A stretch of DNA of 64,000 nucleotides from a virus, in the IMG/VR virus record IMGVR_UViG_3300031758_000006, one strand, 5' to 3'. The position numbers were made by a program, and so were the translations under genes. Below are positions 31,594 through 55,971 of this stretch, piece after piece. Positions within the stretch are counted from its first letter, which is position 1. Each line of letters starts with the position of its first letter. Below the pieces are notes generated by a model. It worked only from the letters and a program-made list of their open reading frames with translations, made no database searches and was not told the origin of the DNA.

Positions 31594-34320
31594 TTAAATC
31601 CAAGACATTTCAACCCCAGTCACATGAGCTGTCCATCTAATATTATCACTAGCAACCCCAGTCACTAAAATTTCTAATTGATCTAAAGTGTTATTTGCGG
31701 AAATAGAAACATTCCAAGCAGTATTATTTTCAACGTCGGTACCCACTGTTGAAACCGCCCCAATAAGTGTGGTGTTCCCACCAACATTTTTAACAGCAAC
31801 TTTTCTAATATAATGAGCTGAACAACCAACACCACATGGGAATGTTGCGTTTTCTTGAACAGCTGAAATTGATACCGTTAAAAATAAAGCTTTACCACTA
31901 GGTACTGTTAACCCTACTGTACTTGTTGGGTAATCTAAAAATAATTTAGTTGGTGTTGCTGTATTAGTTTTATTTGAAAGTAAAAACTCTACCTTTTGAT
32001 TATCTCCCGGATTTGAAAACGTACCTATCGATAAACTTTGTTGACCATATCTGGATGTTAAAGCACCACAACCATAAGCTGTACTATATTCTGATTGTAC
32101 TGTATTACATCTACCACCAATTATTGAACTATAAGTGGAATTTGAGGATATTCTATTTTGTATTCCGTTAATTATTGTACTATAACAAGTCCCCCCAGAT
32201 ATAAAATTAAGTTGACCATTACCGATCATATTAACACATCCACCACTAAAAATGTAATTTAATGCACCACCGACAATTATACTAGAATTTGACAAAATTG
32301 TATTACAAACACCACCATTAATTATACCATATATCGATGAACAACTAATTGTATTATGTATACCACCATTAATTGATGACCCCGTTGTTCCTGTAAATAC
32401 CGTATTTTTAGCCCCACTATTAATGTTTGAAAAACACGAGGATGATGCTACCGTGTTCCCACTACCCCCACCTATAAATCCATGATCACCATTCAAACAG
32501 TTTGATACCCCACCACCAATAACACTATCCGTGGACATTACTGTATTTGTTGATCCACCACCAATAACAGATCTGGATCCTCTAAGGTTATTAAGTAATC
32601 CACCTAAAACTGAAGAATGGTTACCAATGTTTTGATTACTTTGACCACCAACAATAACACTACAACCACCTAATGATTGATTACCTAAACCATTACCAAC
32701 AAATGAATATTGACCGCAAGATTGATTACAATACCCACCAACAATTGATGAATAACAATTATCTGTTATGTTATTACAACCACCACCAATAAATGAACAA
32801 CAAGAGTTTAATTTGGTTAAGTTCTTTTCCCCTCCGGAAATGACAGAACTACCACCACATGATGTATTACAAATACCACCACCAATCAAAGATTTTGTAC
32901 CTGTTGACCATATTGTGTTTTTACAACCACCATTAATTACTGAACAAAAAGAGTACGATGTATTACATTCTCCACCACCTATCGTATTTAATACACCTTC
33001 ACTGTAATTTAAAATACCACCAGATATTACACTCTTTGAAGTAGGACACATTATTTTATTTTGACATCCACCACCAATTACTGAACAATCACTAGTCCCC
33101 CAAATTGTGTTTAAACACCCACCAGCAATTGTACCATTAGTGGATAAGATGGTGTTGTCATTTCCACCACCAATAACAGCCCCTCCAGACGATACCCAAA
33201 CCACATTTGAATTACCTCCGTTTATGGAACTAACCGTTCCCTCAGATACATTAAAAATTCCACCGGTAATAACCGAACCAATACCATTTGATGTAATAAT
33301 GTTTCCACTACCACCACCAATATTACCACCGGTCTCGATTGTGTTATTATCACCACCACCGATTGTTGACAAAGTACCAATCGCAGTATTAGAACCACCG
33401 CCAGCTATGACTGAACATCTACCGTTTGATGTGTTTGATATTCCACCACCAATTACCGAAAAACAAACTGAAGCGGTATTACAATACCCACCACCGATTG
33501 TTGTGGAACAACCTACAGATGTGTTATAATACCCACCAGTCACGTTACTATATATAGTATAAGAGGTATTACCCTCACCACCAAGTACTGAAGAACAATC
33601 ACCAAAAGAATTAGAATTTACATTTATTCTTTGTGTGGAATTAATACCAGTACCAACCTCATGTAAAATGTCTATCCCAGCTATTGATGCCGTAGTTGTT
33701 TGTGTATTTAAATCTAATGTACCAGTTGTTATGTCATAAGTTCCACCAGTTACATAGTGATCTGTATACCCAGTCACAAATCCGGTTACAGTAAATGTAC
33801 CACCAGTACTGTTTGTAAATTCAACATCGCCAGTATTTAAATCGTAAGTACCTCCTGTCACAAAAGTATCACCAAGTAAAGGCAACAGACTTACAGTATC
33901 ACTAAACCCATCATTTCTAGTTATTGTCAAATCCATCGCTGGAGTTTGGAATGTTAGTCCAGTGAAATATGTGTCAGTAAATCCAGTTATGAGAAAATTA
34001 CTACCATCATTATTTGTTAATGTTAATTCTTCGGTAATGTCATTATATGACCCACCGACAACGTATTGGTATCCAGGTATAGTTATCGTACCACCGGTTG
34101 AGTTATTTAATTGTAGTAATCCTGAAGATGGGAAATATGTCCCACTTACAATATCCCCGCCAGAAGTAACCCCACTTAAAACATAAGGTAAAAACTGACT
34201 TAATGGTGTATGTTTTGTCGTACCACTAAATACATCATAGTTTACTATAGCTATTATGTCATTAGTTGTGTAGCCTGTGTTCCCAACGTAAGGTAACTGT
34301 GATATTCTTTTATCTGCCAT
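31594..34320 (-). CDS. tail-fibre/adhesin-like protein with Cys-rich S(V/T)IGGGxxN repeats
   Basis: MADKRISQL N-terminus, VTGGTY shaft modules, a long run of ~15-aa GG repeats and a beta-sandwich-like C-terminus. Confidence 0.7.
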   Translation of the reverse strand: MADKRISQLPYVGNTGYTTNDIIAIVNYDVFSGTTKHTPLSQFLPYVLSGVTSGGDIVSGTYFPSSGLLQLNNSTGGTITIPGYQYVVGGSYNDITEELTLTNNDGSNFLITGFTDTYFTGLTFQTPAMDLTITRNDGFSDTVSLLPLLGDTFVTGGTYDLNTGDVEFTNSTGGTFTVTGFVTGYTDHYVTGGTYDITTGTLDLNTQTTTASIAGIDILHEVGTGINSTQRINVNSNSFGDCSSVLGGEGNTSYTIYSNVTGGYYNTSVGCSTTIGGGYCNTASVCFSVIGGGISNTSNGRCSVIAGGGSNTAIGTLSTIGGGDNNTIETGGNIGGGSGNIITSNGIGSVITGGIFNVSEGTVSSINGGNSNVVWVSSGGAVIGGGNDNTILSTNGTIAGGCLNTIWGTSDCSVIGGGCQNKIMCPTSKSVISGGILNYSEGVLNTIGGGECNTSYSFCSVINGGCKNTIWSTGTKSLIGGGICNTSCGGSSVISGGEKNLTKLNSCCSFIGGGCNNITDNCYSSIVGGYCNQSCGQYSFVGNGLGNQSLGGCSVIVGGQSNQNIGNHSSVLGGLLNNLRGSRSVIGGGSTNTVMSTDSVIGGGVSNCLNGDHGFIGGGSGNTVASSSCFSNINSGAKNTVFTGTTGSSINGGIHNTISCSSIYGIINGGVCNTILSNSSIIVGGALNYIFSGGCVNMIGNGQLNFISGGTCYSTIINGIQNRISSNSTYSSIIGGRCNTVQSEYSTAYGCGALTSRYGQQSLSIGTFSNPGDNQKVEFLLSNKTNTATPTKLFLDYPTSTVGLTVPSGKALFLTVSISAVQENATFPCGVGCSAHYIRKVAVKNVGGNTTLIGAVSTVGTDVENNTAWNVSISANNTLDQLEILVTGVASDNIRWTAHVTGVEMSWI

Positions 34321-36243: not shown

Positions 36244-37920
36244 TTAACATTCTTTTCTTAAATTTCCATCATAAAAATCAAATCGATTGTGTTCTGTTGG
36301 TGTTAACAACAACAATCCAGGTTTAATATTTCCCTTAATTGTTTCTTGATAGCAATTAGACATTAATGTCTGTTCGTAAGGATGTTTAAATTTTGTTTTT
36401 AAGTAACACTTATAATTACCCACTTTTGACATTAGAATAGGCCAATTTGATAGGTATATCTCCCCAGATACATATGGAATACCACCATACGATTTTATGT
36501 GTTTAAATTCTAAATCAGGTGAGTTTGGGTCCAGTCCAATTAAAGGCAGTGATCTGTTGTTAGGCCAATGACTTTCTCTAAAATGTTGTGGTACATTATA
36601 CCAAGACCATTGTTTATCGTGACTCCCAAAAAATTCGGTAAAGTTTAATTTTAAAAAATCAAACCCCTCTTTTTTTAGAATTAATAATGATTTTTTAAAT
36701 AAGTTTTTAACTTTTCTGTTAAACCCGTTTTTACATGTTTGATCAACACCATTATAAAAAAACATATCATCCTCAAAGAAATAGTAAAAGGATAGATCTT
36801 CTTGGTCATTAAAATGTTCAGATATAAACTGTCTACCACCAGTAATTCCGATGTTATCTTTTTTTATATGTTCAAAACCATACATTTCACATAACCTAAC
36901 ATATTCATCCGTAGTCGTTAGATCGGTCGAGTTATTAAGTAGAAATTTTTTAGTACTAAAAATAAAATCAGAGTCATACTCCAGTATGGACTCAATCAAG
37001 GTTTCGAATTGTTTTGGTGAATTAAAAGTGATGACATATAAACCCACAGAACCATTATCATTAGAATAGTCATTTGGTTCTTTTTTGTTCTTTGTTTTTA
37101 AAACTAAATTATTGTTTTTAACATCTTCAAAAAATTTATATAATAAACCATTACCCTCAATCTCGTAATAGTTTATCACATCCGGGTTATGGTATAACAA
37201 TATAGTAAATAAACTTTCCTCAGTACCCATGAACCCCTCACTCAATGTTTGAGTTAAAATATTATAATATAATGTATTTAGTTCTGTTATCAACTCCTTA
37301 TCCCCACCAAAAAATCCACCTCTAGCCACAATATTAGGGTTATCATTTGTCATCTCACACATTTTACTAAATGTAAATCCGTGTATTTCCGAGTTAGTTT
37401 CATATGGGAAACATATAAAATTAAATTTACTTAATTCACTATCTATTTTAGATAAAACTAAATCCTTTGTAAAATAACCTAAATGAATGGTATTTGTTAT
37501 ACCAGCGTCAATCCAAAATAATTTATCTGAATCAAATCTGTCTAAAATTTTTGCGTCATGTAATAAAAACATTTTAGACATTACTAATGGATTATACATC
37601 TCCAACTTAGCTTGTGTCGAATCAGATAACCATCCGACTTGATTATACCAATCGGGGTTGTTTCTAATCGTTTGGATTTTATCATAGTATTCATTGTTTT
37701 TAAACCAAGTAAGGTCTCTTAAAACAAATTGGGTGTTTTCCCTGGATCTATGTTTGAAAACAAACTCCATTAAATTTTCATCACCAAAAATTATAAGATT
37801 ACAATCAATGGTTAATAATTCCGTGAATTTTTCTAAATAATAATCAAATGACCTGGACCATCCTTCAGACATATCACCACGACCAATATCCCACAATCCA
37901 GTAACTAAAGTTGTTTTCAT
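36244..37920 (-). CDS. two-domain glycosyltransferase: HtrL/YibB(WlaTC)-like + GT-A
   Basis: TTLVTGLWDIGR...RSFDYYL, LFWIDAG, GGFFGG, GTEESLF. Second domain VGLYVITFN...DNIGITGGRQ...FFEDDM. Confidence 0.7.
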   Translation of the reverse strand: MKTTLVTGLWDIGRGDMSEGWSRSFDYYLEKFTELLTIDCNLIIFGDENLMEFVFKHRSRENTQFVLRDLTWFKNNEYYDKIQTIRNNPDWYNQVGWLSDSTQAKLEMYNPLVMSKMFLLHDAKILDRFDSDKLFWIDAGITNTIHLGYFTKDLVLSKIDSELSKFNFICFPYETNSEIHGFTFSKMCEMTNDNPNIVARGGFFGGDKELITELNTLYYNILTQTLSEGFMGTEESLFTILLYHNPDVINYYEIEGNGLLYKFFEDVKNNNLVLKTKNKKEPNDYSNDNGSVGLYVITFNSPKQFETLIESILEYDSDFIFSTKKFLLNNSTDLTTTDEYVRLCEMYGFEHIKKDNIGITGGRQFISEHFNDQEDLSFYYFFEDDMFFYNGVDQTCKNGFNRKVKNLFKKSLLILKKEGFDFLKLNFTEFFGSHDKQWSWYNVPQHFRESHWPNNRSLPLIGLDPNSPDLEFKHIKSYGGIPYVSGEIYLSNWPILMSKVGNYKCYLKTKFKHPYEQTLMSNCYQETIKGNIKPGLLLLTPTEHNRFDFYDGNLRKEC

Positions 37921-38765
37921 TAATCAAATATATTGTAAAAATATTTTATACTATCGTCAGTGTGTTCAGGTCTTCTATACCAGTCATCAAAAGAAATTAA
38001 ATTAATACCGTTATTATTGTTATAAAATAAACAAGATAGTATTTGTTCTTCCATATATAACTCCTTCTCACTATTGAGTAACTCAACCAGTAAGTTCTCA
38101 AATTGATCCCTAAAGTTTGAAAATAATTCAGGTTTCCCACCAAAAAATCCACCTATAACATGGTGATCCCTTTGGTAATCTATATAATACTTGGTTGGTA
38201 AGGTTTGTGACCAGAAAAATCTACCGGTATTATTCTTCCCAACCAAAATAAATTTTTCATCTGACATATCATTAAGTTTATTTAAAAATCCACTATTAAA
38301 TGATGTGAATGAGTAATACCTATCATAACCAGTACCGTAAGCTAAATTTTCGGGGAATAACCCACTATGTGATAGTCCAGCGTCAAACCAATATATTCTA
38401 TCATATTGGTTTTTATTCTCTAACATATCGTACCAAAAAAATTTATTATACTGAACTTCAAAACATCGGTCAATAGTCTTCATAAGTTCTAAATCTTTTA
38501 AAGATCTAATCTGATTAAAATATTTAGTGTCATGTAAATCAAAAACAATAAACTCAAGTTTTTCTGGTGAAACACCCCAGTTATTATAAAAATGATTTTT
38601 TAAATCATTCAACTCTTCTTGCGGTACAAAACAAATAAATTTATTAGCTTCTAAGTTTAAAATATTTTTTAATGAAGATCTGTAGTGATAATGTCTCGAC
38701 GGTCTACCACCAAATTCAGTTCCCCATAAATTTGAGTATATTGACGTGTAAATTAATGTTTTCAT
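37920..38765 (-). CDS. HtrL/YibB-like glycosyltransferase
   Basis: QYNKFFW, IYWFDAGL, IGGFFGG, YMEEQILS parallel the first domain of the adjacent gene. Confidence 0.65.
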   Translation of the reverse strand: MKTLIYTSIYSNLWGTEFGGRPSRHYHYRSSLKNILNLEANKFICFVPQEELNDLKNHFYNNWGVSPEKLEFIVFDLHDTKYFNQIRSLKDLELMKTIDRCFEVQYNKFFWYDMLENKNQYDRIYWFDAGLSHSGLFPENLAYGTGYDRYYSFTSFNSGFLNKLNDMSDEKFILVGKNNTGRFFWSQTLPTKYYIDYQRDHHVIGGFFGGKPELFSNFRDQFENLLVELLNSEKELYMEEQILSCLFYNNNNGINLISFDDWYRRPEHTDDSIKYFYNIFD

Positions 38766-38770
38766 ATTTA

Positions 38771-40018
38771 TTATAAATTTCCTGTTATACGATCACACCA
38801 ACCTTTTGATTTTGAGTATGGCCAAACAACCCAATAAGCCGGTTTTTCTTTAGTGTTAAATTGTCTCCATATTTTACAATATCCGTCTGGATCAGTCATC
38901 ATCATTTTTATCTCATCTGTACTAGCGTCTTGTCTATAGATTGTTTCATCTGTTTTATCGTGAAAAGCAACCACCCAATATTCGTAATCGTTTTCCGGTA
39001 CCTGTAAAAAGGATACATCAATACAGTGTTTAAAAATTGATGAAAAACTCTCAACCCAATCCTCTTCGGTTTCAAAGTCGTATGGATTTGGTGGGTATTT
39101 CTTATCTATGGTGTATTTTTGTACAGCTCTTTTAGAGAATAAAACACCGGAATATTTTTCATAATCCTTAATTGTTCTTTCGGTACCAAAACCATATTTA
39201 CCAAGGTCACCGTTATATACTTCACCATCCACACCTAATACCTCCCTGTTTTTTTTGTGTGAAGATTCATTTTTTAAGTACCAAACTTTATCATCGTCCC
39301 ATTGTTTTGTTCTACCTTTTCTGGTGTATTCGTGCCAAATAACAGTTTTATGGGGATGAAACAAATCATAACCGTGTGTATAAGCTCTAACAGCTATAGA
39401 AATTTCCTCACCATGAAAGTAATATTCCGGGTCGTGTTGTACCTCAACACTAAATTGACCAAGAGTAAAACAAAAATGAGCTGAGTAAAATCTAGATGTT
39501 ATCGGTTCGGTTAAATCTTTCCACCCAGGAATTGTCTCCGGTAAAAAGAAAACACAACCCTCTGGGGTGAACCGATCAAAAACCATCCTCCAAGGGTCAA
39601 CAACCCGACCATCTGGATCGTTTTCTGGATCGAAAGATGATACATATCCGGTTAATAGGGGTTTTTTATATCCCTTATCCTGTAGATCAGATAACATATC
39701 TATTAATGTTTGATCCCAGTCTTGATCAAATCTCATGTGTGAATCAATCTGTAGTGTATATTCCTCACCACCGTACAGTTGTTGTACTTGATTACGAGCC
39801 CAACAAACACCTTTAGATTCCTCGTGTGGAATATTTAGAACTCTAAATCTTTTATCTTCTTCATAAGATGAAAGATCATCAAATTTATCTTCTGGGTGGT
39901 ATTGACGAGCGATACCAAATACTAAATTTTTAGGATGTTTTGATTTACTAATAGCGTCTTCTATTGTCGGGACTAATTGTGGATCCCTATATGAAGCGAT
40001 TTGAATGAATATCTTCAT
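38771..40018 (-). CDS. GT60-like (Gnt1/polypeptide alpha-GlcNAc-transferase) glycosyltransferase
   Basis: IFIQIASYRDPQL, ESKGVCWAR, YTLQIDSHMRF..WD, SAHFCF, FHGEE...RAYTHGYDLFHP. Confidence 0.8.
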   Translation of the reverse strand: MKIFIQIASYRDPQLVPTIEDAISKSKHPKNLVFGIARQYHPEDKFDDLSSYEEDKRFRVLNIPHEESKGVCWARNQVQQLYGGEEYTLQIDSHMRFDQDWDQTLIDMLSDLQDKGYKKPLLTGYVSSFDPENDPDGRVVDPWRMVFDRFTPEGCVFFLPETIPGWKDLTEPITSRFYSAHFCFTLGQFSVEVQHDPEYYFHGEEISIAVRAYTHGYDLFHPHKTVIWHEYTRKGRTKQWDDDKVWYLKNESSHKKNREVLGVDGEVYNGDLGKYGFGTERTIKDYEKYSGVLFSKRAVQKYTIDKKYPPNPYDFETEEDWVESFSSIFKHCIDVSFLQVPENDYEYWVVAFHDKTDETIYRQDASTDEIKMMMTDPDGYCKIWRQFNTKEKPAYWVVWPYSKSKGWCDRITGNL

Positions 40019-42774: not shown

Positions 42775-44682
42775 TTAAATACTTCTTATTATAACTCTAA
42801 CCTCCCAGGTACCGGAAATAACAGATACTCTAAGAGTAGCGTTAGTACCGTTAGAAATCATGTTAAATGTTATTGGTGTCGTAACACCTATACTAGTGGT
42901 TGTAGTTTCAGTAATGTTAACGGTTGTACCACTAAAGATTGACATTATTTGTCCTGACCTAGCTCCGGTAGTACTTTTAACAGTATACTCAAACCAAGCT
43001 CCGGTATACGCACTCAATGGTAAAGAGTATACGTTTGTAGTACCCACAGGTGGTAAAACCCTAACCGTTGTATTTAATGATGGGGCAAGGTATGAACCCA
43101 TTAGTATTGTGTTATCTGAAAACACCTCAAATATTGGTATTCCGGAAATATCATTTACACTAAACAACGATCCGATTAGACTATCATTTACACTAAATAA
43201 TTCTCCGTTAGATCCTTGAACACTAAAAATTGGTGGTGACGATGTATTCCCGGAACCAATAATTGTTAATACATTCTGAGAACTTCCAGACATTATTGTG
43301 TTCCCACTAACATTAAAATTTCCCTTAATATTAACCTCATCTTGTAAACCATCAACCGTTAGAAAATCATGATTATCGTTATCATCTCTAATAACAAAAT
43401 TACGGTCTTGATAAACATAAAATATTGATTCTGTTATTGTGTGTTTTCTAATCTCCTCACCCGCTGAGTATTCGATAATACCAGGTGTTGTTGGATTTAC
43501 GGTTTGATATATGATTGAGGATCCGCTAGGTGTTAACATTCCCAAAGAAACAGATGAGGTATCAATACCTAAATAACCTTCACTATAGGATGTACCATCA
43601 GTTGACAAATACACCCCGTAACCATCCAAATCGTGAACCCTATAACCAGTAAATGTTAAATCGGTATTTGCAAAGTTTGTATCTGTAGTTACCGGTAAAT
43701 TCAAATATGTTGTCGCGGATAAAGTCCCATTTACCGTTAAACCGGTCATCGTGTTTATTGACGCTGAAAAAGTATTCCCAGAATTATCATAGATGTTAAA
43801 AGTATTTGAGTCATCATATGTATACCCGGTTACATAGTGATCAGTATACCCAACTAAAAAACCAGAAACATTAAATGTCCCACCTGAATTATTTGTAAAT
43901 GTCGCGACACCACTACCAGAATTATATGTACCACCAGTTATAGTCATATCACTAGATAATATTGATAAACTAACTGTATCACTCCACAAATCGTTTCTTG
44001 TTACCGTTAAATTATAATTTGAATTGTTAAATGATAAATCCGTTATATATTTATCTGGTGTATTGGTTAAATTAGATCCGTCCCCGTAAAATGTTCCACC
44101 ACTTATTGTTGTCGCTGATAATACGTTTATAGATGATGAAAATGTATTTCCAGAGTTATCATCAATACTAAATGTATTTATATTATCATATGTAAATCCT
44201 GTAATATATGTATTAGTTGTGTCTAATCCACTAATTTGATACCCACCACCAGTATTATAATAAAAATTTAAAATACCAGATGAATAAGTTCCACCCGTAG
44301 TATATGTATCACCAGTAATACTCACACCGTTAACATTTAATGTTGTAGCTGTAACTCCCTGTGTGAATATTGTATCCCCACTTATTGTACCCCCAGTAAA
44401 GGTACCACCACCACCCCCACTTTGGAATATTGACCAATCACTTAATGATCCATTCCATGGTGGCGAATTTAATTTGTAATATATTGAACCGTCATTCACA
44501 CCAACAACCATCCCAGGTCGTCTCCTTTGATTTGTTATTGAGTTTAATTCGGTTATAGTATTAACATTTCGTAAACCGTCAATACCATACAATGGGTCAA
44601 TTACTGGGTATGTATCATTTGTATCCGTGGGGGAAATAAATCCCAGAACCTCAACCCCACCTGAAAAACTAAAACTTGGCAT
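42775..44682 (-). CDS. tail-fibre-like protein with repeated (V/I)TG(G/F/Y)TY shaft modules
   Basis: N-terminal LRNVNTITELNSIT..RRRPGMVVGV module, multiple shaft repeats, C-terminal AYTGAWFEY...RSGQIM domain. Confidence 0.6.
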   Translation of the reverse strand: MPSFSFSGGVEVLGFISPTDTNDTYPVIDPLYGIDGLRNVNTITELNSITNQRRRPGMVVGVNDGSIYYKLNSPPWNGSLSDWSIFQSGGGGGTFTGGTISGDTIFTQGVTATTLNVNGVSITGDTYTTGGTYSSGILNFYYNTGGGYQISGLDTTNTYITGFTYDNINTFSIDDNSGNTFSSSINVLSATTISGGTFYGDGSNLTNTPDKYITDLSFNNSNYNLTVTRNDLWSDTVSLSILSSDMTITGGTYNSGSGVATFTNNSGGTFNVSGFLVGYTDHYVTGYTYDDSNTFNIYDNSGNTFSASINTMTGLTVNGTLSATTYLNLPVTTDTNFANTDLTFTGYRVHDLDGYGVYLSTDGTSYSEGYLGIDTSSVSLGMLTPSGSSIIYQTVNPTTPGIIEYSAGEEIRKHTITESIFYVYQDRNFVIRDDNDNHDFLTVDGLQDEVNIKGNFNVSGNTIMSGSSQNVLTIIGSGNTSSPPIFSVQGSNGELFSVNDSLIGSLFSVNDISGIPIFEVFSDNTILMGSYLAPSLNTTVRVLPPVGTTNVYSLPLSAYTGAWFEYTVKSTTGARSGQIMSIFSGTTVNITETTTTSIGVTTPITFNMISNGTNATLRVSVISGTWEVRVIIRSI

Positions 44683-44690
44683 AATATTTT

Positions 44691-45647
44691 TTAACTACAT
44701 AACCAACAATCAACAGTACCCAAGAAGTCATTAAAGGTTCTGTAGACATTGTAATTTATCTGGAATCCATTTCCATCTACTATAATTATTGTACCTATAT
44801 TGTTTGTTGGTATGTTAAATCCATTACAACCAATCGTACTATTTCTAAATCCTGTTGGTTGTGGTAATGATATCGGTATTAAAATGTATCCCCAGTATGG
44901 TGTAACACTACTCGTAAATGTAACATAATCATCTGTTGGGTCATTTGTATACTCGAAAGTAAGAAGTGAAGAGTCCCCACTAGTTATTGACGAACCACTA
45001 AATTTACCAAAATAAATTCCTGGTAAGTCTGGTTCCGGTGAACTACTAGGTGTTGGTGTTGGTGTATTCGTTGGTGTGGTAGTATTGGTAGGGGTAGGTG
45101 TCATAGTATTTGTTGGAGTAACTGTGTTTGTTGGAGTAACTGTTGGTGTAGGTGTAGGTGTTGATTTACATATTTGATATGTTGGTGTGGGTGTTGGTGT
45201 TTTTGTTGGGGTTGGTGTATTACTTGGATGTGGACATCCACAAGGACTTGTACAAGTTTCAGTTGGTGTTGGTGTTACAGTTGGGGTAACGGTATTCGTT
45301 GGTGTGTTCGTTGGTGTTGGGGTTGGTACCTTACAAGGATCAAATGTTGGTGTTGGTGTTACAGTTGGTGTTGGTGTAGGTGTTTGTGTCCTTGTCGGAG
45401 TCACAGTTGGTGTTGGTGTGGGGGTAGGTCTTGGAACATTTAATATATTCGGACAATCCCCATTCTCAACTAGTATCGTATAGACACCGTACACTTCCCT
45501 TGGTGGTACTAATAAGTCCGGGAAAAAAATAAACGGTAACGTAACTTGACCTAGATTAATGACAACATTATCATTATCCGGTTTAAAAATAACGGTAGCT
45601 AATTCACCGTCAAAATTTATACTATCTATGGTTATACTTTGACTCAT
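44691..45647 (-). CDS. structural-type protein with Cys-punctuated mucin-like PT tract
   Basis: About 130 aa of [12 protein letters not shown] repeats between two beta domains. Confidence 0.6.
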
Positions 45648-45696: not shown

Positions 45697-46581
45697 CTAA
45701 TTTTGTAAGGACTCGACAATCTCATCCAAATTAAAAATATTATTATCGAACATAGGACATTCATGTGTTGTACCATTGAAGTCGTAGTCAAATAAATAAC
45801 TATCTGGTAATTTAACAGTATTTGGTAATGTAGCCACTATATTTTTGTGTAACCCATACCCAAACACAACCGGAGATGTCCCAACCCAAAGAACTGTTGA
45901 CTGGAGACCTAAAGCTGCCGAAGCGTGTTGTAGTGATGAATCAATTAATAATCTTTTTTCTGAAGCTAATAACATTGAAAATAATTCCATATTTGATAAT
46001 GGTTCATGTACAACCTCAACATTGGGTAAAGAGTTGTGTTCATGTCGACAAACTTGGATTATATGATATTTCTCGGAAAATACCTCAACAATTTTTTGAG
46101 CTACTTCATATGGAATATCCCTAGTCCATGAATATGTGTGTGGTTGTTCTTGTAACGGACCACCATTTGTTTGAATAACCATTACCGGTTTTTCTCTTAA
46201 CCATTTACCATGTGCTATTTGTAATTGTCTAATATTGAATTTTAAAACAGGTTGTTCGTTATTATATTTTAAATTATGTAGTTTACACCAATTTAACAAT
46301 AAATGTAATCTTTTGTGTATGTGATCATCGGTAAAATATGGTTCATGTTTAAATACCATAGTATCTTTATTATTAATAAAATCGTCGTAGAAATATGGTG
46401 TCATACCAAGTCTATATACTCGATCAACAAAATCTAAGTTTAGAAATATTTCTGGGTAAGCACAAACAATTATTAATTCTCTGTCCGGGTGATTATTTTT
46501 TATACATTGGGCTACCGCTGTAGCTAGAACGTGCTTACCCAAACCACCCTCAATGTGAAATAAACTATATTTTTTTTCCAT
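45697..46581 (-). CDS. GT9 (heptosyltransferase)-like GT-B glycosyltransferase
   Basis: GGLGKHVLATAVAQCIKNNHPDRELIIV and LLIDSSLQHASAALGLQSTVLW mirror GT9 motifs. Confidence 0.65.
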   Translation of the reverse strand: MEKKYSLFHIEGGLGKHVLATAVAQCIKNNHPDRELIIVCAYPEIFLNLDFVDRVYRLGMTPYFYDDFINNKDTMVFKHEPYFTDDHIHKRLHLLLNWCKLHNLKYNNEQPVLKFNIRQLQIAHGKWLREKPVMVIQTNGGPLQEQPHTYSWTRDIPYEVAQKIVEVFSEKYHIIQVCRHEHNSLPNVEVVHEPLSNMELFSMLLASEKRLLIDSSLQHASAALGLQSTVLWVGTSPVVFGYGLHKNIVATLPNTVKLPDSYLFDYDFNGTTHECPMFDNNIFNLDEIVESLQN

Positions 46582-46586
46582 ACTAA

Positions 46587-46615
46587 ATTATATAACTGTT
46601 TTATTTATTTGTAAA
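46587..46615 (-). promoter_or_regulatory. sigma70-type promoter, probably leaderless
   Basis: TTTACA (46615-46610), 17-nt spacer, TATAAT (46592-46587), then 5 nt to the ATG at 46581. Confidence 0.45.
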
Positions 46616-47512
46616 CGACAAAGCTAATTCTATTTTTTCCCAGACCATATCTGGGGTTATTTTTAAATGACATTCATTTTCCCTACCGGTCCCCAAAAAT
46701 ACCGGACAATGTGTTTTAATGTTCATAAACATATTAAAACATCCATTACACACATTTGGGTTTAACACACGAAAACAATCAAATTCATTTTGTTTTTTTG
46801 TAAAGTTAGATATCATAACCACCGGTATGTCATACGCCCAAGCTAACCAAGATAAACCAGAGGACAACCCAATAAAAATCCTAGATTCGAGTATGTGGTT
46901 TAAGGACACCGTAATATCATCGAAACCGTTACAATTTGTCACACCTTCAAGATTTAGTGTATTCTCATATGATACATTTGTCACTTCATACCCAGATGAG
47001 GTCAATCTGTTAACAATTTCCTGCCACCCATTATCATAATCCCACCTAGCTATTTTCTTTAATGATTCCGGTGCGATTGAAATTTTATTATTTTTTTTGT
47101 TAATTTTATATGGGATAACCGGACATTTTCCGGGTTTAGTATCTTGTGGTAACATCATGGTATCTTTGGTAGCGTACATCATACCATTTAGGGTATGTTT
47201 TAAATTACCTTTATCATAACCAATGTCCAACAATCTATCAACCTCAATATAAACCGGATTATTAGCTTTTATAAATTCACACCTATCAACATCTTTAGAT
47301 TGGAATAAATGTGGAAAAAAGGTTGATATGTAAATCTTTTTGGGTTTGTGGTATTCAATAAACGGATCAATGAAAGATGAAAAACATATTGTATCACCCA
47401 AACAAAATGAGTCAAAATGAAGTAGTAACGTACGACCATTAAAATTTGTAATATTTGGATCTAACTGTATGTACTTTAATAATTCCTCTTCTTCGTAATG
47501 TCGTTTAACCAT
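46601..47512 (-). CDS. autotransporter O-heptosyltransferase (AAH/TibC, BAHT)-like protein glycosyltransferase
   Basis: SFCLGDTI (catalytic-Asp motif), LKKIARW...GWQEIV, FIGLSSGLSWLAWA...VVMISNFT, and a four-Cys motif CNGC...HC...EC. Confidence 0.75.
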   Translation of the reverse strand: MVKRHYEEEELLKYIQLDPNITNFNGRTLLLHFDSFCLGDTICFSSFIDPFIEYHKPKKIYISTFFPHLFQSKDVDRCEFIKANNPVYIEVDRLLDIGYDKGNLKHTLNGMMYATKDTMMLPQDTKPGKCPVIPYKINKKNNKISIAPESLKKIARWDYDNGWQEIVNRLTSSGYEVTNVSYENTLNLEGVTNCNGFDDITVSLNHILESRIFIGLSSGLSWLAWAYDIPVVMISNFTKKQNEFDCFRVLNPNVCNGCFNMFMNIKTHCPVFLGTGRENECHLKITPDMVWEKIELALSFTNK

Positions 47513-48248
47513 TTTTAAGTTTTAAAATTTTAGAATAATAATCAAACCAATATCTTTCTTGCCACAATGTACCTTCCTCAAGTGAGACTAACGGTTTATT
47601 TTGCCAAGGTTTTTTAGCTATAAAATGTAATATTTTAATATATTTTGGTAGACCTGTATTTATGAAAATTTGTTTAGAGTACGTCTTTAAGTAATTATAC
47701 TCGATTGGAATAGTACTAATTACGTCACTAAAGTACAAATTAATAATATCCTGATCAAAGTGTTCAGTAATACCATATATTAATGTTAGATTAATTAAAT
47801 CATTTGTTATTTTTTCTGACAAATATTTTTTGTCGATAACCATAACACCCGTATTATATTGGTCAATATATAATTCCCGGACACACCCGAACGAATGTGA
47901 ATAATCAATCAGGTAATCGATATTACCAAGAACAACAATATCTGAATCTAAAAATATTATTTTATCAACATCACTAATTGAAAATATCTCATACTTTGTG
48001 TAATCACCAAACCCAGTCTGGTCTGATTTTAATTCGTCAATATTACCGTACTTTGACTGGTCATAATTTTTTAATGAAATATTATTATGTATTTTCCTAG
48101 AGGTTATCAGATCATCCGAAGTTAAATCATTACTGATCACCATAAATGGTATATTTTCATCAACAACCCTGGGATTGTTTTCCACTAATGATTTTAACAT
48201 TACCTCAAAACCAATTAGATAGTCCTTATTACATACTGATACAAACAT
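47505..48248 (-). CDS. GT8-family glycosyltransferase
   Basis: TKYEIF, IIFLDSDIVV, YNTGVMVI, DQDIIN, IEYN, HFIAKKPW. Confidence 0.85.
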   Translation of the reverse strand: MFVSVCNKDYLIGFEVMLKSLVENNPRVVDENIPFMVISNDLTSDDLITSRKIHNNISLKNYDQSKYGNIDELKSDQTGFGDYTKYEIFSISDVDKIIFLDSDIVVLGNIDYLIDYSHSFGCVRELYIDQYNTGVMVIDKKYLSEKITNDLINLTLIYGITEHFDQDIINLYFSDVISTIPIEYNYLKTYSKQIFINTGLPKYIKILHFIAKKPWQNKPLVSLEEGTLWQERYWFDYYSKILKLKNG

Positions 48249-48291
48249 AAATTAATAATAAACATTATTGGGAAAATGTCATTATTAAAAT

Positions 48292-48320
48292 AAAAAACCC
48301 CCATTTAAAGTGGGGGTCTT
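48292..48320 (-). terminator. rho-independent terminator separating fibre gene from GT cassette
   Basis: ACCCCCAT/GTGGGGGT hairpin plus T6 on the minus strand. Confidence 0.75.
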
Positions 48321-48340
48321 CATAATTATTTTTTTTTATT

Positions 48341-50449
48341 TTAGAATGGTGCTGAGTCGTTAGCGTACCAGTCAGTACCATTACTAATAAATGTTGTTTT
48401 AGTATATACAGCTGTTGGTAAGTTTTGAGCTATACCAACCCCATTTATTTTAGCTCCTCCACTACCAACAACAAAAGCACTGTTAGTGTTATTAGTTCTA
48501 ATTAGAATAACCTCTTTACCATCTCTAGCTGTTGGTAGATAAATGGTACCACCAGGTCCTGAAGTGTTATAAAATACAATACTATCGTTATCCGTTAAAT
48601 TCGGATCCGCTAACGCGTCAACCATTGTTGTTTTATAATTTACTGGTCCAGTAAATTGTGTTTCACCAAGGTACACAGTGTTTGGGGTTGTTGCGGTCAA
48701 ACTACTTGTGTTAATTAATACTACATCATTAGTTAACACTAGATTACCACTACCCCCGACAGTATTTGATCCATCCCCAACGATTGTATTCCCTAGCCCA
48801 CCAAGTACATGAGATGTTTCACCAGTTATGTCGTTACTTGCACCACCAAAAACAGATGACCCAGCTCCAACTACACTATTCCTCGATCCACCCAAAATTG
48901 TTGATGTGTCCCCAGAAGTTGAATTAAATCTACCCCCACCGATAAATGAGTTATTGGAATATATTGTATTATCTTTACCTGCACCAACGGATGAGTAGTC
49001 ACCAAATACCACACTTTCACCACCAACTTTGGTAATTCCAGTTATTGGGATTGGTGTTGGTCCGTCGGGATTTAAAATTATATCCCCGGTTCTACCAGAA
49101 TATGTCCCACCTGTTATACAACAATCAGCGTCAGTGAAACCAGTGACAATTATATCTTGATTGTTATCATATCTTAAATTTAAAGTACCAGTGGTGTTAT
49201 CATATGACCCACTAGTAATGTAAGTTGTTTTTGGGAATTCAAAAACCCTAACAAACCCATCACCATCAACCCCAATAGGGTCAATACCCGATAATGGTAC
49301 TGGTATAGTTGTATATGTTACAGATGTTGGGTCACTATTGTTAAATAAATTTAATTGATCAACATATACTGTATTATCCGAAAAACCACTAATGTTACTA
49401 CCACCAAGAATCACAGAATTATTACCAACTAGGTAGGAATTATTTGACAAAACATGTGAAGTATCTCCAGATACAAAGTTACCGTATCCAACAGACGATG
49501 ACGTGGAACCTAAAACAGTGTTGTATATTCCACCACCAACTGTTGATCCAACACCTTCGACTGTATTAAATCTACCACCAAGTACGGATGAATATTCTAA
49601 AACAGTTTTATTGTCCATACCACCAGCGATTACCGAAGACCCACCCTCAATCATATTTAATGATCCACCACCAATGAATGATGATTCGGATTTAATTTCA
49701 TTTAAATACCCACCACCAATAACTGATAGATCAGAAGATATTGAGTTATTTATACCGGTGTTTATTGATGAATTACTTGATGTGATTATATTACAAATAC
49801 CATTATTAATAACTGATTGTTCTCCGGAAATTTGATTTCTAAATCCATTCCCGATTGACGAAAGTGATCCGTTAACAGTATTCGACACACCATTTAAAAT
49901 TGATCCGTTTTGTGAGTTTACGGTGTTACCCTGTCCATTCAGTATTACTGACGATGATTTTGAGATAACATTTGACGACCCACCACCTACTAAACTATGA
50001 TCACCAGTAACTATATTACCGATACCATTTGTTACCGTTGAATAGTTCGAATTTACTGTATTTGTTAAACCGTTAGAGATTGTCGAGTAGTTACCAAATA
50101 GGTTATTATTCAACCCATTGTTTATCACACTAGTCGAACCAGTTATAATATTATTAGATCCACCAATTATAACCGAGTAACTAGAACTATTTTCAGATAT
50201 TCTATTTGATTTACCACCAGAAATTACTGTAAAGTCGGACTGTGAAAAATTATCATAACCACCAGCTACCGAGTCATTACCAACCAATGTATTGCCATAA
50301 CCACCCAATACGGTTGATCTAACACCGTTTGATGTATTTTTACCACCTCCAGATATTGTTGAGTAAGAACCAAGACTAATATTACCTAATCTGTCTCTCA
50401 CTGTTGTGGTGCTCCCACCATTCACATCTGTTATAATTATTTCTGTCAT
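48341..50449 (-). CDS. fibre/adhesin-like protein with SxIxGGxxN repeats
   Basis: Two blocks of ~15-aa Ser/Gly/Asn repeats, two ITxGxY shaft modules and a C-terminal beta domain ending FISNGTDWY. Confidence 0.7.
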   Translation of the reverse strand: MTEIIITDVNGGSTTTVRDRLGNISLGSYSTISGGGKNTSNGVRSTVLGGYGNTLVGNDSVAGGYDNFSQSDFTVISGGKSNRISENSSSYSVIIGGSNNIITGSTSVINNGLNNNLFGNYSTISNGLTNTVNSNYSTVTNGIGNIVTGDHSLVGGGSSNVISKSSSVILNGQGNTVNSQNGSILNGVSNTVNGSLSSIGNGFRNQISGEQSVINNGICNIITSSNSSINTGINNSISSDLSVIGGGYLNEIKSESSFIGGGSLNMIEGGSSVIAGGMDNKTVLEYSSVLGGRFNTVEGVGSTVGGGIYNTVLGSTSSSVGYGNFVSGDTSHVLSNNSYLVGNNSVILGGSNISGFSDNTVYVDQLNLFNNSDPTSVTYTTIPVPLSGIDPIGVDGDGFVRVFEFPKTTYITSGSYDNTTGTLNLRYDNNQDIIVTGFTDADCCITGGTYSGRTGDIILNPDGPTPIPITGITKVGGESVVFGDYSSVGAGKDNTIYSNNSFIGGGRFNSTSGDTSTILGGSRNSVVGAGSSVFGGASNDITGETSHVLGGLGNTIVGDGSNTVGGSGNLVLTNDVVLINTSSLTATTPNTVYLGETQFTGPVNYKTTMVDALADPNLTDNDSIVFYNTSGPGGTIYLPTARDGKEVILIRTNNTNSAFVVGSGGAKINGVGIAQNLPTAVYTKTTFISNGTDWYANDSAPF

Positions 50450-51944: not shown

Positions 51945-53585
51945 TTATCCAACTCTTTGTGTTGAGAACCTAACATAATCATCAGGTGCTACAGTTGTGT
52001 AGTTTAATCCTGTTGTATTAAGTACTCTAACACATAATTGGTCACCAGCGTTTAGTAACACACCCCATTGTCCACCGTTAATATCAGCGTATTTTTGAAT
52101 GTTTGACGTGTAGAATGTACTTGAAGCGTAAACCTCACCAGTAACAACATCAACAATACCAGCGTAAATCATACCCTCAGCTAATGAATACCACCCATTA
52201 ACCGCGTCTGGACCAGTTAAATGAACATAAAAACTCATGTTCCATCTACCACTTTGTGGACATGTCCAAATACCAGTAGCGTTATCATATGACCCGATGT
52301 AATCATTATATTGTAATGTCGGTGTTTGTGTTACCGCAACCAATGAGTTTGATAAATCATTACCTAAACCAGAAGACACACTATTTACTGGATCTGGTGA
52401 ACCTTCCGATAAGAAAGCGTCAACCACAAAGTTAACACCTGGATTAGTTGATGGTACAACAAATCCGTTAGCGTCAACCGCTAATCCGTATATTGGTGAA
52501 GTGTTTGGAAAACTTCTAATGTTAAGTTTTGGTACGTAAACCGAATCATCAACAGTTACGTTAACGTTAGATCCACCCAAAGCTACACTTCGGTTAGCAC
52601 TAACACTTGAACTTGTAGCGATTATGAATGAATCATTACCTGTAATTTTATTTGATGAACTACCTAAGATTGCTGATCTTTGTCCAGTTATTGTATTACC
52701 AAATCCACCACCGATTGTTGATGAACAAGCTGTCGTTGTTATTGTGTTCCCACTACCACCACCAATCGAAGATATTTGACCAAGTGTTGTATTACGAACC
52801 CCACCACCAATTGCTGGTGAAGCAGCATTAGCTAAGTTAAAAGAACCACCACCAACGATTGAGTTTATTTGTAAAGCCGTGTTATTTGTTCCACCACCAA
52901 TTACTGTGTTAGCACCACTAGTGAAATTACACTGACCACCTAGAATTGTTGAGTAACTAAATATACCAAACGGGTCAATGGTGTTTCTTGCACCACCACC
53001 AATAACGTTTATATTTCCTTTTCCATCAACACTTGGTAGTATTGTGTTATTATCACCACCACCAATAACACTACTTATTGATTGTGTTAGGTTACAGTTA
53101 CCCCCAAGGATTACAGAGTTAATGGCAAAAGCCCTATTAAGTTGACCACCACCTATTGTCACATTTGATTCTCGTATAGAGTTACTTGAACCACCAGCAA
53201 TAGTGTTGTCAACACCAGTAATAATATTGTTACAGATACCACCACCAATGAAACCTTCAATACCACTGATATTGTTACACGCTCCACCACCAATAGTTGA
53301 TCTCTCACTGTTCACATTAATTACGTTTCTCCAACCACCAACAATTGTACTACAAGGTGCTGACCCAGAAGCTTTTGTTGTTGATATTCGGTTACACGCT
53401 CCACCACCGATAGTTGACCATACTGGTCCAGCGGTATTTTTACAACCACCACCGACGATAGTTTCAGTTAATTGTGACGTATTTAATTGACCACCAGCTA
53501 CGGTACTACAGCTTCCGTTCGATAGGTTAGTGTTCGAATCTCTTAGTGTTGACCCAGGTCCTATACCTTGAATTATAATTGCCAT
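51945..53585 (-). CDS. fibre/adhesin-like protein, GG repeats + C1q-like head
   Basis: S(T/V)IGGGxxN repeats followed by YDNATGIWTCPQSGRWNMS...LNAGDQL (C1q-like). Confidence 0.7.
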   Translation of the reverse strand: MAIIIQGIGPGSTLRDSNTNLSNGSCSTVAGGQLNTSQLTETIVGGGCKNTAGPVWSTIGGGACNRISTTKASGSAPCSTIVGGWRNVINVNSERSTIGGGACNNISGIEGFIGGGICNNIITGVDNTIAGGSSNSIRESNVTIGGGQLNRAFAINSVILGGNCNLTQSISSVIGGGDNNTILPSVDGKGNINVIGGGARNTIDPFGIFSYSTILGGQCNFTSGANTVIGGGTNNTALQINSIVGGGSFNLANAASPAIGGGVRNTTLGQISSIGGGSGNTITTTACSSTIGGGFGNTITGQRSAILGSSSNKITGNDSFIIATSSSVSANRSVALGGSNVNVTVDDSVYVPKLNIRSFPNTSPIYGLAVDANGFVVPSTNPGVNFVVDAFLSEGSPDPVNSVSSGLGNDLSNSLVAVTQTPTLQYNDYIGSYDNATGIWTCPQSGRWNMSFYVHLTGPDAVNGWYSLAEGMIYAGIVDVVTGEVYASSTFYTSNIQKYADINGGQWGVLLNAGDQLCVRVLNTTGLNYTTVAPDDYVRFSTQRVG

Positions 53586-53669: not shown

Positions 53670-55901
53670 TTATATAATTGTTGTGGTTGTTGTTGTGTAA
53701 TCGTTTATGGTATATGTTAAATCATTAGTTTCACAATATTTTGTATCACAATTTGGACAGTCTGGATCAAACATTTCAAATTTATTTTTTAATAAATTAA
53801 AATTATGTTTAACTTCCGACGAGTTTAATGGTTCAACATACATTCTAAATTGAGTTATCCCACCCTCAAAGTAACCACCAAAATTTTGTTCTAGTAAAAT
53901 GTTAGTTTTTAATTTTGAAAATGTTGTACCACTTAATATATTATTTGGAAAACATTCTGGATCCTGAATATAATTTGATGTTAATCCGGTACAGGAAGAG
54001 AATGTTAAGTTCTCATGTAATCCTTGTGTACCCCCACCCCAAGAGATATTAAAAGGAACACCAACTTGTTTTTCTTTATCGGTATGTAAAGCTCTAGGAA
54101 TTACTTCCTCAAAGTCCTCAATAGTGAAGAACCGTTTACCGTTCACATAGATCTTTAATCTACCCATTCGATATTTTACATCATCTAACCACTTTTTATT
54201 TAAATTAACAAGTTCTACAGTTTGTGGTGTTTTAATACCATTAGTAACTGGGGGTGAAATTAATTTAACAGTATCATTAGCTAATGAATCCAAATATTTA
54301 ACCTCACTAATATCCCCAAGACCACCAAAGTATTTTAGATCACAGAAATCTAAAAATGTATACCGACTCCACACGACATCAACTTGTAACCACTTCTCGA
54401 TATCTAAAAATCCAATATTACGTTTTTCACAATAATCATAAACCCCATTTGGTGAACAATAATTAACAACCGTATATCCTGTTGTAAATGTTAAACCTGT
54501 GACAGTAGTTCCAGTTGTTTCACAAGTTCCCGTTAATTTTAAAACCCTAACACAAATTTTTGGATTTTTGGGATCACCAGAAAATTTAATAGACATAGCG
54601 TTTGATAACGAATCCCACAATGGATCCTTTTCACACGTATCCTCAATTGATTTAATCCCCTCATTTGTTGAACAATCTGTACAATCAGTACATGTTTTAC
54701 ACGTCGTACAACTTGGTGTACAAACCGGTACTTGGTATTCACAATTAGGGGTTGGACTAGGTGTGGGTGTTGGTGTGGGTGTTGGGTATTTCGTGGTAAA
54801 ACATTTGTGTGTTCTACATTCCCACCCACAAGTTTCACATGGGTCTTCACCACAACTACAACCACAAGTTAATCTTTTTTCTTTATCCCCACCACAAAGA
54901 TCACATCCATAATTTAAATGTGGATCATGTTTTCCATCTTTAGATCTTGGGGGGTAAACAAATATACATCTACTGTTTGTAATATTTTCTAAAACATAAT
55001 CAGGTGTGATTCCTGTTGTAAATACCGCTTCGACCGAACAACAAGCACAAGTTTGTAGACAATCAGCTAGTGGTGTTGTTACACGAGTATACCCGGTTAA
55101 ACATTTTGGGGACCCGTCAGCGTAATGATAAAATTTATTTTCAGCTCTGGTACCAAAATAAAAAAATGTATTTTTATTGTTTGGGTATAAAATATTTAAG
55201 GTTGTCTCACCAGATGATACCGGATACTCATCACAGAATCTAGGTCTTAACAACATCTCAACCGACCAACCCTTACTCATACGTTCTGGTAATATGTCAT
55301 AGTCATAACCAAAAAGTTTATAAAACCCTTGATAAAATCCACCATACAATTCATGGTAATATCCATAATTTGGGTGGTTTTTACTTACTATCTCATACAA
55401 TGTGTTTTGTGGTCTACCCGAAAAAATATCATATTGTTTTGTATGTCCGGTAACCTGAAACATTTTCATTCTTCGATCGTAAAATAATCTATTAAATTTA
55501 AATGGATCAACATATAAACCATTCGTGTAATTTAAACTAATTCCCGTCATCACATCAACTAAACCATTGTCAATACCAGTCAACCCAATATCACATGAGG
55601 TTGATGATGAATAGTTACAAAAATTTATGTTATCTGGATTATAAAAGTTTTGAGATACAAATACATTATTATAATTGTAATTTTTCCAAATAAGATTTGG
55701 TTGTGTTGTTGTTAAAAAATTATTTGTGTCAAAATATATAGGTAATTTATTTCCATATGTTTCAGCTATTAAGTAAGGTGAAAATAAAACTTCTTCATCG
55801 TAATCACGTTCATCAGATGTTAATGACATATCCATACTGTCAGATATAAGATTTATCTTATATTTCTGATAAACATATTGATTAATATTCTGTTGAGCCA
55901 T
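53670..55901 (-). CDS. Cys-rich structural-type protein with LamG-like C-terminus
   Basis: Likely start MAQQN at 55901. CxxC cluster and PT linker, then LKIYVNGK...FEGGITQFRMYVEPL..EVKHNF. Confidence 0.55.
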   Translation of the reverse strand: MAQQNINQYVYQKYKINLISDSMDMSLTSDERDYDEEVLFSPYLIAETYGNKLPIYFDTNNFLTTTQPNLIWKNYNYNNVFVSQNFYNPDNINFCNYSSSTSCDIGLTGIDNGLVDVMTGISLNYTNGLYVDPFKFNRLFYDRRMKMFQVTGHTKQYDIFSGRPQNTLYEIVSKNHPNYGYYHELYGGFYQGFYKLFGYDYDILPERMSKGWSVEMLLRPRFCDEYPVSSGETTLNILYPNNKNTFFYFGTRAENKFYHYADGSPKCLTGYTRVTTPLADCLQTCACCSVEAVFTTGITPDYVLENITNSRCIFVYPPRSKDGKHDPHLNYGCDLCGGDKEKRLTCGCSCGEDPCETCGWECRTHKCFTTKYPTPTPTPTPSPTPNCEYQVPVCTPSCTTCKTCTDCTDCSTNEGIKSIEDTCEKDPLWDSLSNAMSIKFSGDPKNPKICVRVLKLTGTCETTGTTVTGLTFTTGYTVVNYCSPNGVYDYCEKRNIGFLDIEKWLQVDVVWSRYTFLDFCDLKYFGGLGDISEVKYLDSLANDTVKLISPPVTNGIKTPQTVELVNLNKKWLDDVKYRMGRLKIYVNGKRFFTIEDFEEVIPRALHTDKEKQVGVPFNISWGGGTQGLHENLTFSSCTGLTSNYIQDPECFPNNILSGTTFSKLKTNILLEQNFGGYFEGGITQFRMYVEPLNSSEVKHNFNLLKNKFEMFDPDCPNCDTKYCETNDLTYTINDYTTTTTTII

Positions 55902-55971
55902 ACTTTTTAATAATAAATACAATAAATGAAAGTATTTATATTTAAAAACTAAATTGAATTACGTTTAATCA

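Follow-up and report, generated by a model that had tools for sequence, protein, structure and literature searches.

TibC-type glycosyltransferases are virulence-linked modifiers of bacterial adhesins, and the locus described here raises the question of what such an enzyme does in a phage, where it is encoded behind a long repetitive fibre. The locus lies in a 64,000-nucleotide stretch of DNA (the window) from IMG/VR record IMGVR_UViG_3300031758_000006, which covers nearly all of a 78-kb viral contig (completeness 27% by CheckV) and has a GC content of ~33%. Among the products encoded on the contig are a DNA polymerase and a tail sheath like that of T4; of the cultured phages, Microcystis phage Mel-JY01 is the nearest, with a sheath identity of ~31%. 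The source looks like an uncultured freshwater giant phage, apparently a lytic jumbo myophage, whose lineage may be near that of the 'moraphage' paper (PMC12619734; Bacteroidota hosts are predicted there). Between 31.6 and 55.9 kb, on the minus strand throughout, a fibre/baseplate block has glycosyltransferase genes interleaved, and three of these (45697-48248) follow a fibre gene at 48341-50449. Judging from sequence comparison and structural models, we consider it fairly probable that this trio is a phage protein O-glycosylation cassette, which would act in the cytoplasm, with a sugar that we leave unspecified, on the phage's own beta-roll fibres. The acceptors would be the product of 48341-50449 and probably also those of 51945-53585 and 31594-34320.

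The central gene of the trio (46601-47512, minus strand) encodes a barrel-less, TibC/Aah-like glycosyltransferase of the BAHT clade, 303 residues long. The three motifs that the original prediction had read in it are all present in the translation: LGD (residues 38-40, window 47393-47401), SSGLSWLAW (residues 217-225, window 46838-46864) and C255-x2-C258...C269...C281 (window 46670-46750). LGD, SSGLSWLAW and the four cysteines show no variation among 17 relatives, and the cysteines, together with G39 and W225, are invariant in 39 diverse homologues. Asp40 of the LGD motif, which aligns with Asp110 of TibC, is invariant in the 17 close relatives and nearly so in the 39 homologues. The family profile TIGR04414 (hepto_Aah_TibC) matches the protein with an E value of 5.8e-33 (114.3 bits, profile positions 79-372 of 374), whereas the profile of lipopolysaccharide (LPS) heptosyltransferase I reaches merely E 0.056, and a phmmer search of the PDB finds TibC (4rb4/4rap) at E 2e-16. 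The AlphaFold model, for which 39 homologues were used (pLDDT 94.5), has TibC as its top structural match in the PDB (TMq 0.78-0.81, E ~1e-20), compared with TMq 0.52-0.61 and E ~1e-8 for the LPS heptosyltransferases WaaC/WaaF. The predicted BAHT-like profile and fold are thus borne out, and on these grounds the product is a true TibC/Aah homologue; it is also, by its sequence, no textbook BAHT.

We compared the enzyme with TibC residue by residue, taking the reference residues from PMC4358343 (structures 4RAP/4RB4). In TibC, the iron finger contacts the protein substrate (PMC4358343); its Cys339/342/358/370 correspond to phage C255/C258/C269/C281, and iron binding is predicted for the phage enzyme as well. 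The residues that bind ADP-heptose in TibC are Thr226, Lys230, Arg286 and Trp305 (PMC4358343), and the last of these, which contacts the heptose, is retained as W222, while TibC position 300 is a serine in the phage enzyme, as is Ser294 in AAH. A motif that the phage clade shares with the full-length relatives closest to it, APESLKxIAxW, places an invariant Lys152 three residues before the Lys230 position. The TibC thumb, a beta-hairpin whose hydrophobic tip (Phe265/Val266) is needed for the dodecamer (PMC4358343), aligns with a phage segment of similar length that has Gly190/Val191 at the tip and conserved Leu188 and Val191; the model has one short strand there.

The family to which this enzyme belongs is sizeable, with 1,923 clusters in a protein search and 443 viral contigs in IMG/VR. 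A tree of 107 domains places the standalone enzymes of phages in a phage-only clade on a long, fully supported branch, distinct from the bacterial clade linked to autotransporters as well as from a clade of phage fusion proteins, and the closest homologues from bacterial genomes are no better than ~33% identical to the window's enzyme. A cultured-phage collection yielded four records with a TibC-like gene, namely three huge metagenomic phages and Mel-JY01, and PHROGs gave no match for the gene.

The two partners of the TibC-like enzyme are a GT8 and a GT9-fold protein. The first gene of the trio (47505-48248, minus strand) encodes a GT8-family glycosyltransferase of 247 residues that matches PF01501 with E 1e-21 and 78 bits, against a gathering score of 24.3, and that carries a DxD-type motif, FLDSDIVV; between the stop of this gene and the start of the TibC-like gene there is an overlap of 8 nt. 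The last gene (45697-46581, minus strand) encodes a 294-residue GT9-fold paralogue of the TibC-like enzyme, with GGLGK at the LGD position and no cysteine finger, which retains the donor-site motif IDSxLQHAxAAL. Neither Pfam nor NCBIfam nor a search of PDB sequences with a profile returned anything for this protein, whose identity comes solely from profile-profile comparison with the BAHT alignment (hhalign 96.6%, E 6e-10) and from its fold, the best Foldseek matches of the model being the GT9 structures 3tov, WaaF and WaaC (TMq 0.57-0.71). Given the PF01501 match, the TIGR04414 match with the TibC fold, and the hhalign result with the GT9 fold, the predicted GT8-BAHT-GT9 trio is real, with a GT9-fold protein as its third member. 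A strong terminator-like hairpin (11 pairs and a T run; 48293-48321, minus strand) stands directly 3' of the fibre gene and is followed by a promoter-like site at 48282-48255, ahead of the trio, so that the three transferase genes look like a transcription unit of their own. No membrane segments are predicted in the trio or the fibre proteins.

The fibre gene ahead of the trio (48341-50449, minus strand) encodes 702 residues arranged as two blocks of 15-residue beta-roll repeats and a C-terminal non-repeat domain. The protein is rich in serine (14%), glycine (16%) and asparagine (12%), its 15-residue period has an autocorrelation of 0.24, and the repeat consensus is S-x-I-x-G-G-x-x-N-x-I-x-G-x-x, with serine at position 1 in 21 of 35 units. 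The two fibres in which the original prediction had noted similar repeats, of 546 residues (51945-53585, minus strand) and 908 residues (31594-34320, minus strand), share the 15-residue period and match the 48341-50449 fibre by BLAST. The caution that such repeats resemble the head of a trimeric autotransporter more than the AIDA beta-helix was well placed, since they match the UspA1 head (3pr7) at E 4e-14. We found no autotransporter or YadA anchor domain, signal peptide or membrane segment in the 48341-50449 protein, no match for the fibres in PHROGs, and no match in a tblastn search of cultured phages with the fibre.

The evidence that ties the enzymes to the fibres is comparative. In a set of 28 viral loci with close relatives (49-91% identity), the genes run from a conserved anchor through a single fibre or a pair of fibres to GT8, TibC-like and GT9-like, and 23 of the 28 have, no more than three genes away, a fibre whose period is ~15-17 residues. 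These 23 include three in which a solenoid with 17-residue NIALG-type repeats replaces the 15-residue fibre, and the other five loci are mostly cut by the contig end. Across the close loci the enzymes are 61-91% identical, as against 30-50% for the fibres, whose length ranges from 540 to 1,478 residues. The anchor is the product of 53670-55922 (minus strand), a conserved Cys-rich protein of the virion module, 750 residues long, which precedes the variable fibre cassette in relatives. With its homologues as a fixed point in 356 contigs, the cassette downstream proves to be a mosaic, in which beta-roll fibres are followed by the trio and Pro/Thr-rich proteins by a GT60 gene. Searches over the full length of 49 records found beta-roll fibres in nine, and TibC-like and GT9-like genes in six of the nine; the remaining three end at the fibre, so that all six that extend past it hold both enzymes. 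Among the 40 records without a beta-roll fibre, the standalone enzyme occurs in one only, the record with the 17-residue solenoid. Mapped on the anchor-protein tree, the fibre state has changed at least five times, and the pairing is therefore not a single inherited accident.

A second architecture, ~35% identical to that of the window, combines a GT4+TibC-like fusion and a GT9-like gene that is transcribed divergently with a giant fibre of 719-2,329 residues that carries 15-residue STIGGGxxNTASG repeats. It occurs in three loci (L031, L070, L073) that sit on separate branches of the fusion-clade tree, and in a complete 322-kb genome (G041). As a positive control, the same periodicity scan shows bacterial homologues adjoining giants with 19-residue repeats, while fusion-type phage enzymes are found near proline-free, collagen-like Gly-Ser/Thr fibres in 30 of 51 loci. 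In these loci, the common denominator of the pairings is a Ser-rich periodic fibre, and only solenoid fibres have the GT9-like partner.

The loci compared hold several further features. The 17-residue solenoid is exemplified by a 535-residue fibre with N-I-A-L-G-x-x-S-L-x-x-N-T-x-G repeats at L018:6768-8375 (also L019 and L027), with the same trio behind it, and a protein of 17-residue period is present in G037. In some genomes the GT9-like gene is present twice, the further copy having 53% identity and lying upstream of the fibres (L014:2185-3063 and G001:C1:181317-182192). Where Pro/Thr-rich proteins replace the beta-roll fibres after the anchor, a GT60-type (PF11397) gene and an HtrL/YibB-like gene accompany them, a second pairing of fibre type with enzyme type within the lineage (window 36244-40018; L164, L171, L192, L195, L220, L225, L238, L239). 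The anchor protein itself contains a dense cluster of invariant cysteines, many of them in CxxC pairs, followed by a Pro/Thr linker. Several relatives encode, on the opposite strand, proteins that also have a 15-residue period; these proved to contain VPxVPE proline repeats rather than beta-rolls and are therefore no counter-examples. Giants built almost wholly of proline repeats (VPxVPE/FVPLVP, up to 2,424 residues) lie on the opposite strand near the anchor at L215:14113-21387, L222:12923-17770 and L163:15348-17711.

Glycosylation of the fibres is the reading that we favour, for four reasons. The homology and fold of the central enzyme are far nearer to the TibC clade than to the LPS heptosyltransferases; the counterparts of the catalytic aspartate, the four iron-binding cysteines and Trp305 of TibC are kept and invariant; membrane segments are absent from enzymes and fibre alike, and the fibre also lacks a signal peptide; and fibre and cassette are associated in the 28 loci, in the mosaic anchor loci, in the second architecture and in the controls. 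The proposal that phage fibres are the substrate has thereby gained comparative support, in that the cassette travels with the fibre type over at least five changes and in two architectures.

The acceptor and the order of steps that we infer would be as follows. The fibres would fold in the host cytoplasm, where the TibC-like enzyme, with Asp40 as the base and its iron finger docked on the repetitive solenoid, would add a first sugar to serine (or threonine) in the strand-loop-strand rungs. Elongation to a short glycan resembling an LPS core would then be the task of the GT9-fold paralogue and the GT8 enzyme, with nucleotide sugars drawn from the host. In most relatives, the product would also be sulfated: there, the trio is followed by genes for a sulfotransferase (272 residues), an APS kinase (151 residues), a cytidylyltransferase-like protein (154 residues) and a DUF2061 protein (146 residues), as at L005:11822-13984 (also L007, L012, L018, L025 and others), which suggests a phage-encoded supply of PAPS and sulfation of the product in these phages. 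The set is absent from the window and from L003.

As for the sugar, the original prediction cautioned that the donor may not be ADP-heptose, and two observations agree with this: three nucleotide-binding residues of TibC differ in the phage enzyme, and neither the contig nor the complete relative G001 has GmhA, RfaE-like or NTP-transferase genes. Heptose as the transferred sugar is therefore possible but, on this sequence evidence, doubtful. In G004, a more distant phage whose complete genome of 326 kb encodes a TibC-like enzyme of the fusion type, adjacent RfaE-like adenylyltransferase and kinase genes (G004:C1:213644-214772) may represent a phage-encoded step of ADP-sugar activation; both matches fall below the family cut-offs, the kinase match contains one in-frame TAA, and GmhA is missing.

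Several observations weigh against fibre glycosylation. The 114.3 bits of the TibC-like protein fall short of the TIGR04414 equivalog cut-off of 200 bits. At the donor site, Thr226 of TibC is replaced by Leu151 and Lys230 by Ala155, and the adenine-contacting Arg286 has no phage counterpart. The N-terminal beta-barrel of TibC (residues 1-97), which takes part in forming the back-to-back dimer (PMC4358343), is absent from the phage enzyme: a search with PF21129, the barrel family, gave no match, the alignment begins at TibC residue 94 (phage residue 24), and the N-terminus of the model has one short strand only. In the GT9-like protein, the position of the catalytic aspartate is occupied by an invariant lysine, Lys16. 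On the side of the fibre, the serine at position 1 is conserved in UspA1-type heads too and may be purely structural, and we know of no UspA1-type head that is a target of BAHT glycosylation. The compared contigs are mostly fragments, so that absences are weak evidence, and a fibre gene linked to a cassette that modifies the receptor would be expected to show the same co-variation. Lastly, BimC, a BAHT member whose partner is the autotransporter BimA, is reported to bind iron and this partner and to lack transferase activity (PMC6439308).

A first alternative is that the cassette remodels an envelope glycolipid of the host (nascent LPS or the lipooligosaccharide core) during infection and thereby masks the receptor of the linked fibre, either for superinfection exclusion or to spare progeny from loss on cell debris, the linkage then reflecting the matching of fibre to receptor. 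GT9-fold, GT8 and HtrL/YibB-like enzymes are typical of LPS-core synthesis, this explanation likewise predicts co-variation with fibre type, and temperate Salmonella phages do have a fibre gene genetically linked to receptor-modifying genes. We nevertheless regard it as unlikely. The central enzyme falls within the TibC clade, which modifies proteins, and not with WaaC/WaaF, and it keeps the iron finger, the contact with the substrate protein in TibC; Ser-rich fibres of a quite different kind are the partners of its fusion-type relatives; and the genes sit inside the late structural block of what is apparently a lytic jumbo myophage.

It is also conceivable, and in our judgement quite unlikely, that the cassette targets other virion proteins rather than the beta-roll fibres. 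The Ser/Thr-rich product of 42775-44682 and the Pro/Thr-stalk protein of 44691-45647 are encoded just downstream of the trio, and with a total of ~9 transferase genes in the window the assignment of enzymes to targets is uncertain. In relatives, however, Pro/Thr-rich proteins go with GT60 and not with the trio, which stands behind a beta-roll or 17-residue solenoid fibre wherever sequence is available.

Still harder to sustain, and to our minds very unlikely, is a non-catalytic role, in which one or both of the TibC-like protein and its GT9-like partner would serve as factors for fibre assembly or docking, as is reported for BimC with BimA. The lysine in place of the catalytic aspartate in the GT9-like protein would fit this role, as would the alterations at T226, K230 and R286 in the TibC-like enzyme. 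Yet Asp40, W222, the SSGLSW donor motif and the clade-specific Lys152 are invariant, and a GT8 neighbour, like the sulfation genes of the relatives, makes sense only if a glycan is built. A role in DNA modification was rejected, given the GT8 and GT9/TibC enzyme types, their position inside the fibre block and their co-variation with fibre type.

Elsewhere in the window, a plus-strand cluster at 58778-63999 encodes a GT4-like protein (58778-60055), a methyltransferase (61387-61950), a GT2/GT92-like protein (61947-62648) and a protein with two GT2 domains that runs off the window end (62650-63999). An Fe/Mn superoxide dismutase with both Pfam domains is encoded at 25974-27071 (plus strand) and has an unexplained N-terminal extension of ~160 residues.

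The papers searched describe neither TibC-like enzymes of phages nor a virion decoration of this kind, and virion glycosylation has to our knowledge been shown experimentally for few phages only. The window contributes a barrel-less clade, a partner of GT9-like type and the pairing with beta-roll fibres. It is tempting, if still somewhat speculative, to generalize that aquatic jumbo phages commonly glycosylate their tail fibres with TibC-family enzymes, and that the window represents a second virion-glycosylation system with its own donor and acceptor recognition, in which a separate barrel-less clade with a changed nucleotide-sugar site, together with GT9-like and GT8 partners, places on adhesin-type beta-roll fibres a glycan similar to an LPS core, which would be sulfated in many relatives. 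If this is true, many environmental phages may have their stability, host range and recognition shaped by glycans; a compact, monomer-sized model of how the family reads repetitive folds would be available in the barrel-less enzyme with its beta-roll substrate, and the altered donor site may supply a new sugar specificity for glyco-engineering.

Among the closest known systems are TibC-TibA and Aah-AIDA-I of E. coli, whose enzymes are bacterial autotransporter heptosyltransferases (BAHT) and in which, as here, a soluble cytoplasmic enzyme is encoded beside a long, Ser-rich, periodic beta-solenoid protein. The locus departs from them in that the phage neighbour is a fibre of the 15-residue left-handed beta-roll type with no translocator, in contrast to a 19-residue beta-helix passenger, and in that two extra transferases always accompany the phage enzyme. 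The GT4+TibC-like fusions of large phages, one of which is carried by Mel-JY01 (PP395634), share with the window the enzyme family, a broad aquatic-phage lineage and nearby Ser-rich periodic fibres. These fusions, however, are proteins of 700-1475 residues that contain GT4, pyruvyl-transferase or methyltransferase domains; their identity is 34-39%, and triplet-repeat fibres are mostly their partners, whereas the window has the standalone 303-residue form, separate GT8 and GT9-like genes and beta-roll fibres. Trimeric adhesins of the UspA1/YadA type resemble the phage fibre in the repeats that match the UspA1 head, but the fibre lacks a YadA-type anchor and a signal peptide and is thus not an autotransporter. 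Trimeric adhesins are glycosylated in the cytoplasm by HMW1C-like enzymes (PMC4550697), a precedent that differs in that the enzymes belong to an unrelated family and act on asparagine. Finally, in mycobacteriophages, phage-encoded transferases are reported to O-glycosylate virion proteins (Freeman et al. 2023, cited in PMC12619734); the two systems would be alike in that phage transferases decorate the phage's own virion proteins, as we propose here, and would differ in enzyme families, hosts and targets, which there are the C-termini of capsid and tail-tube subunits.

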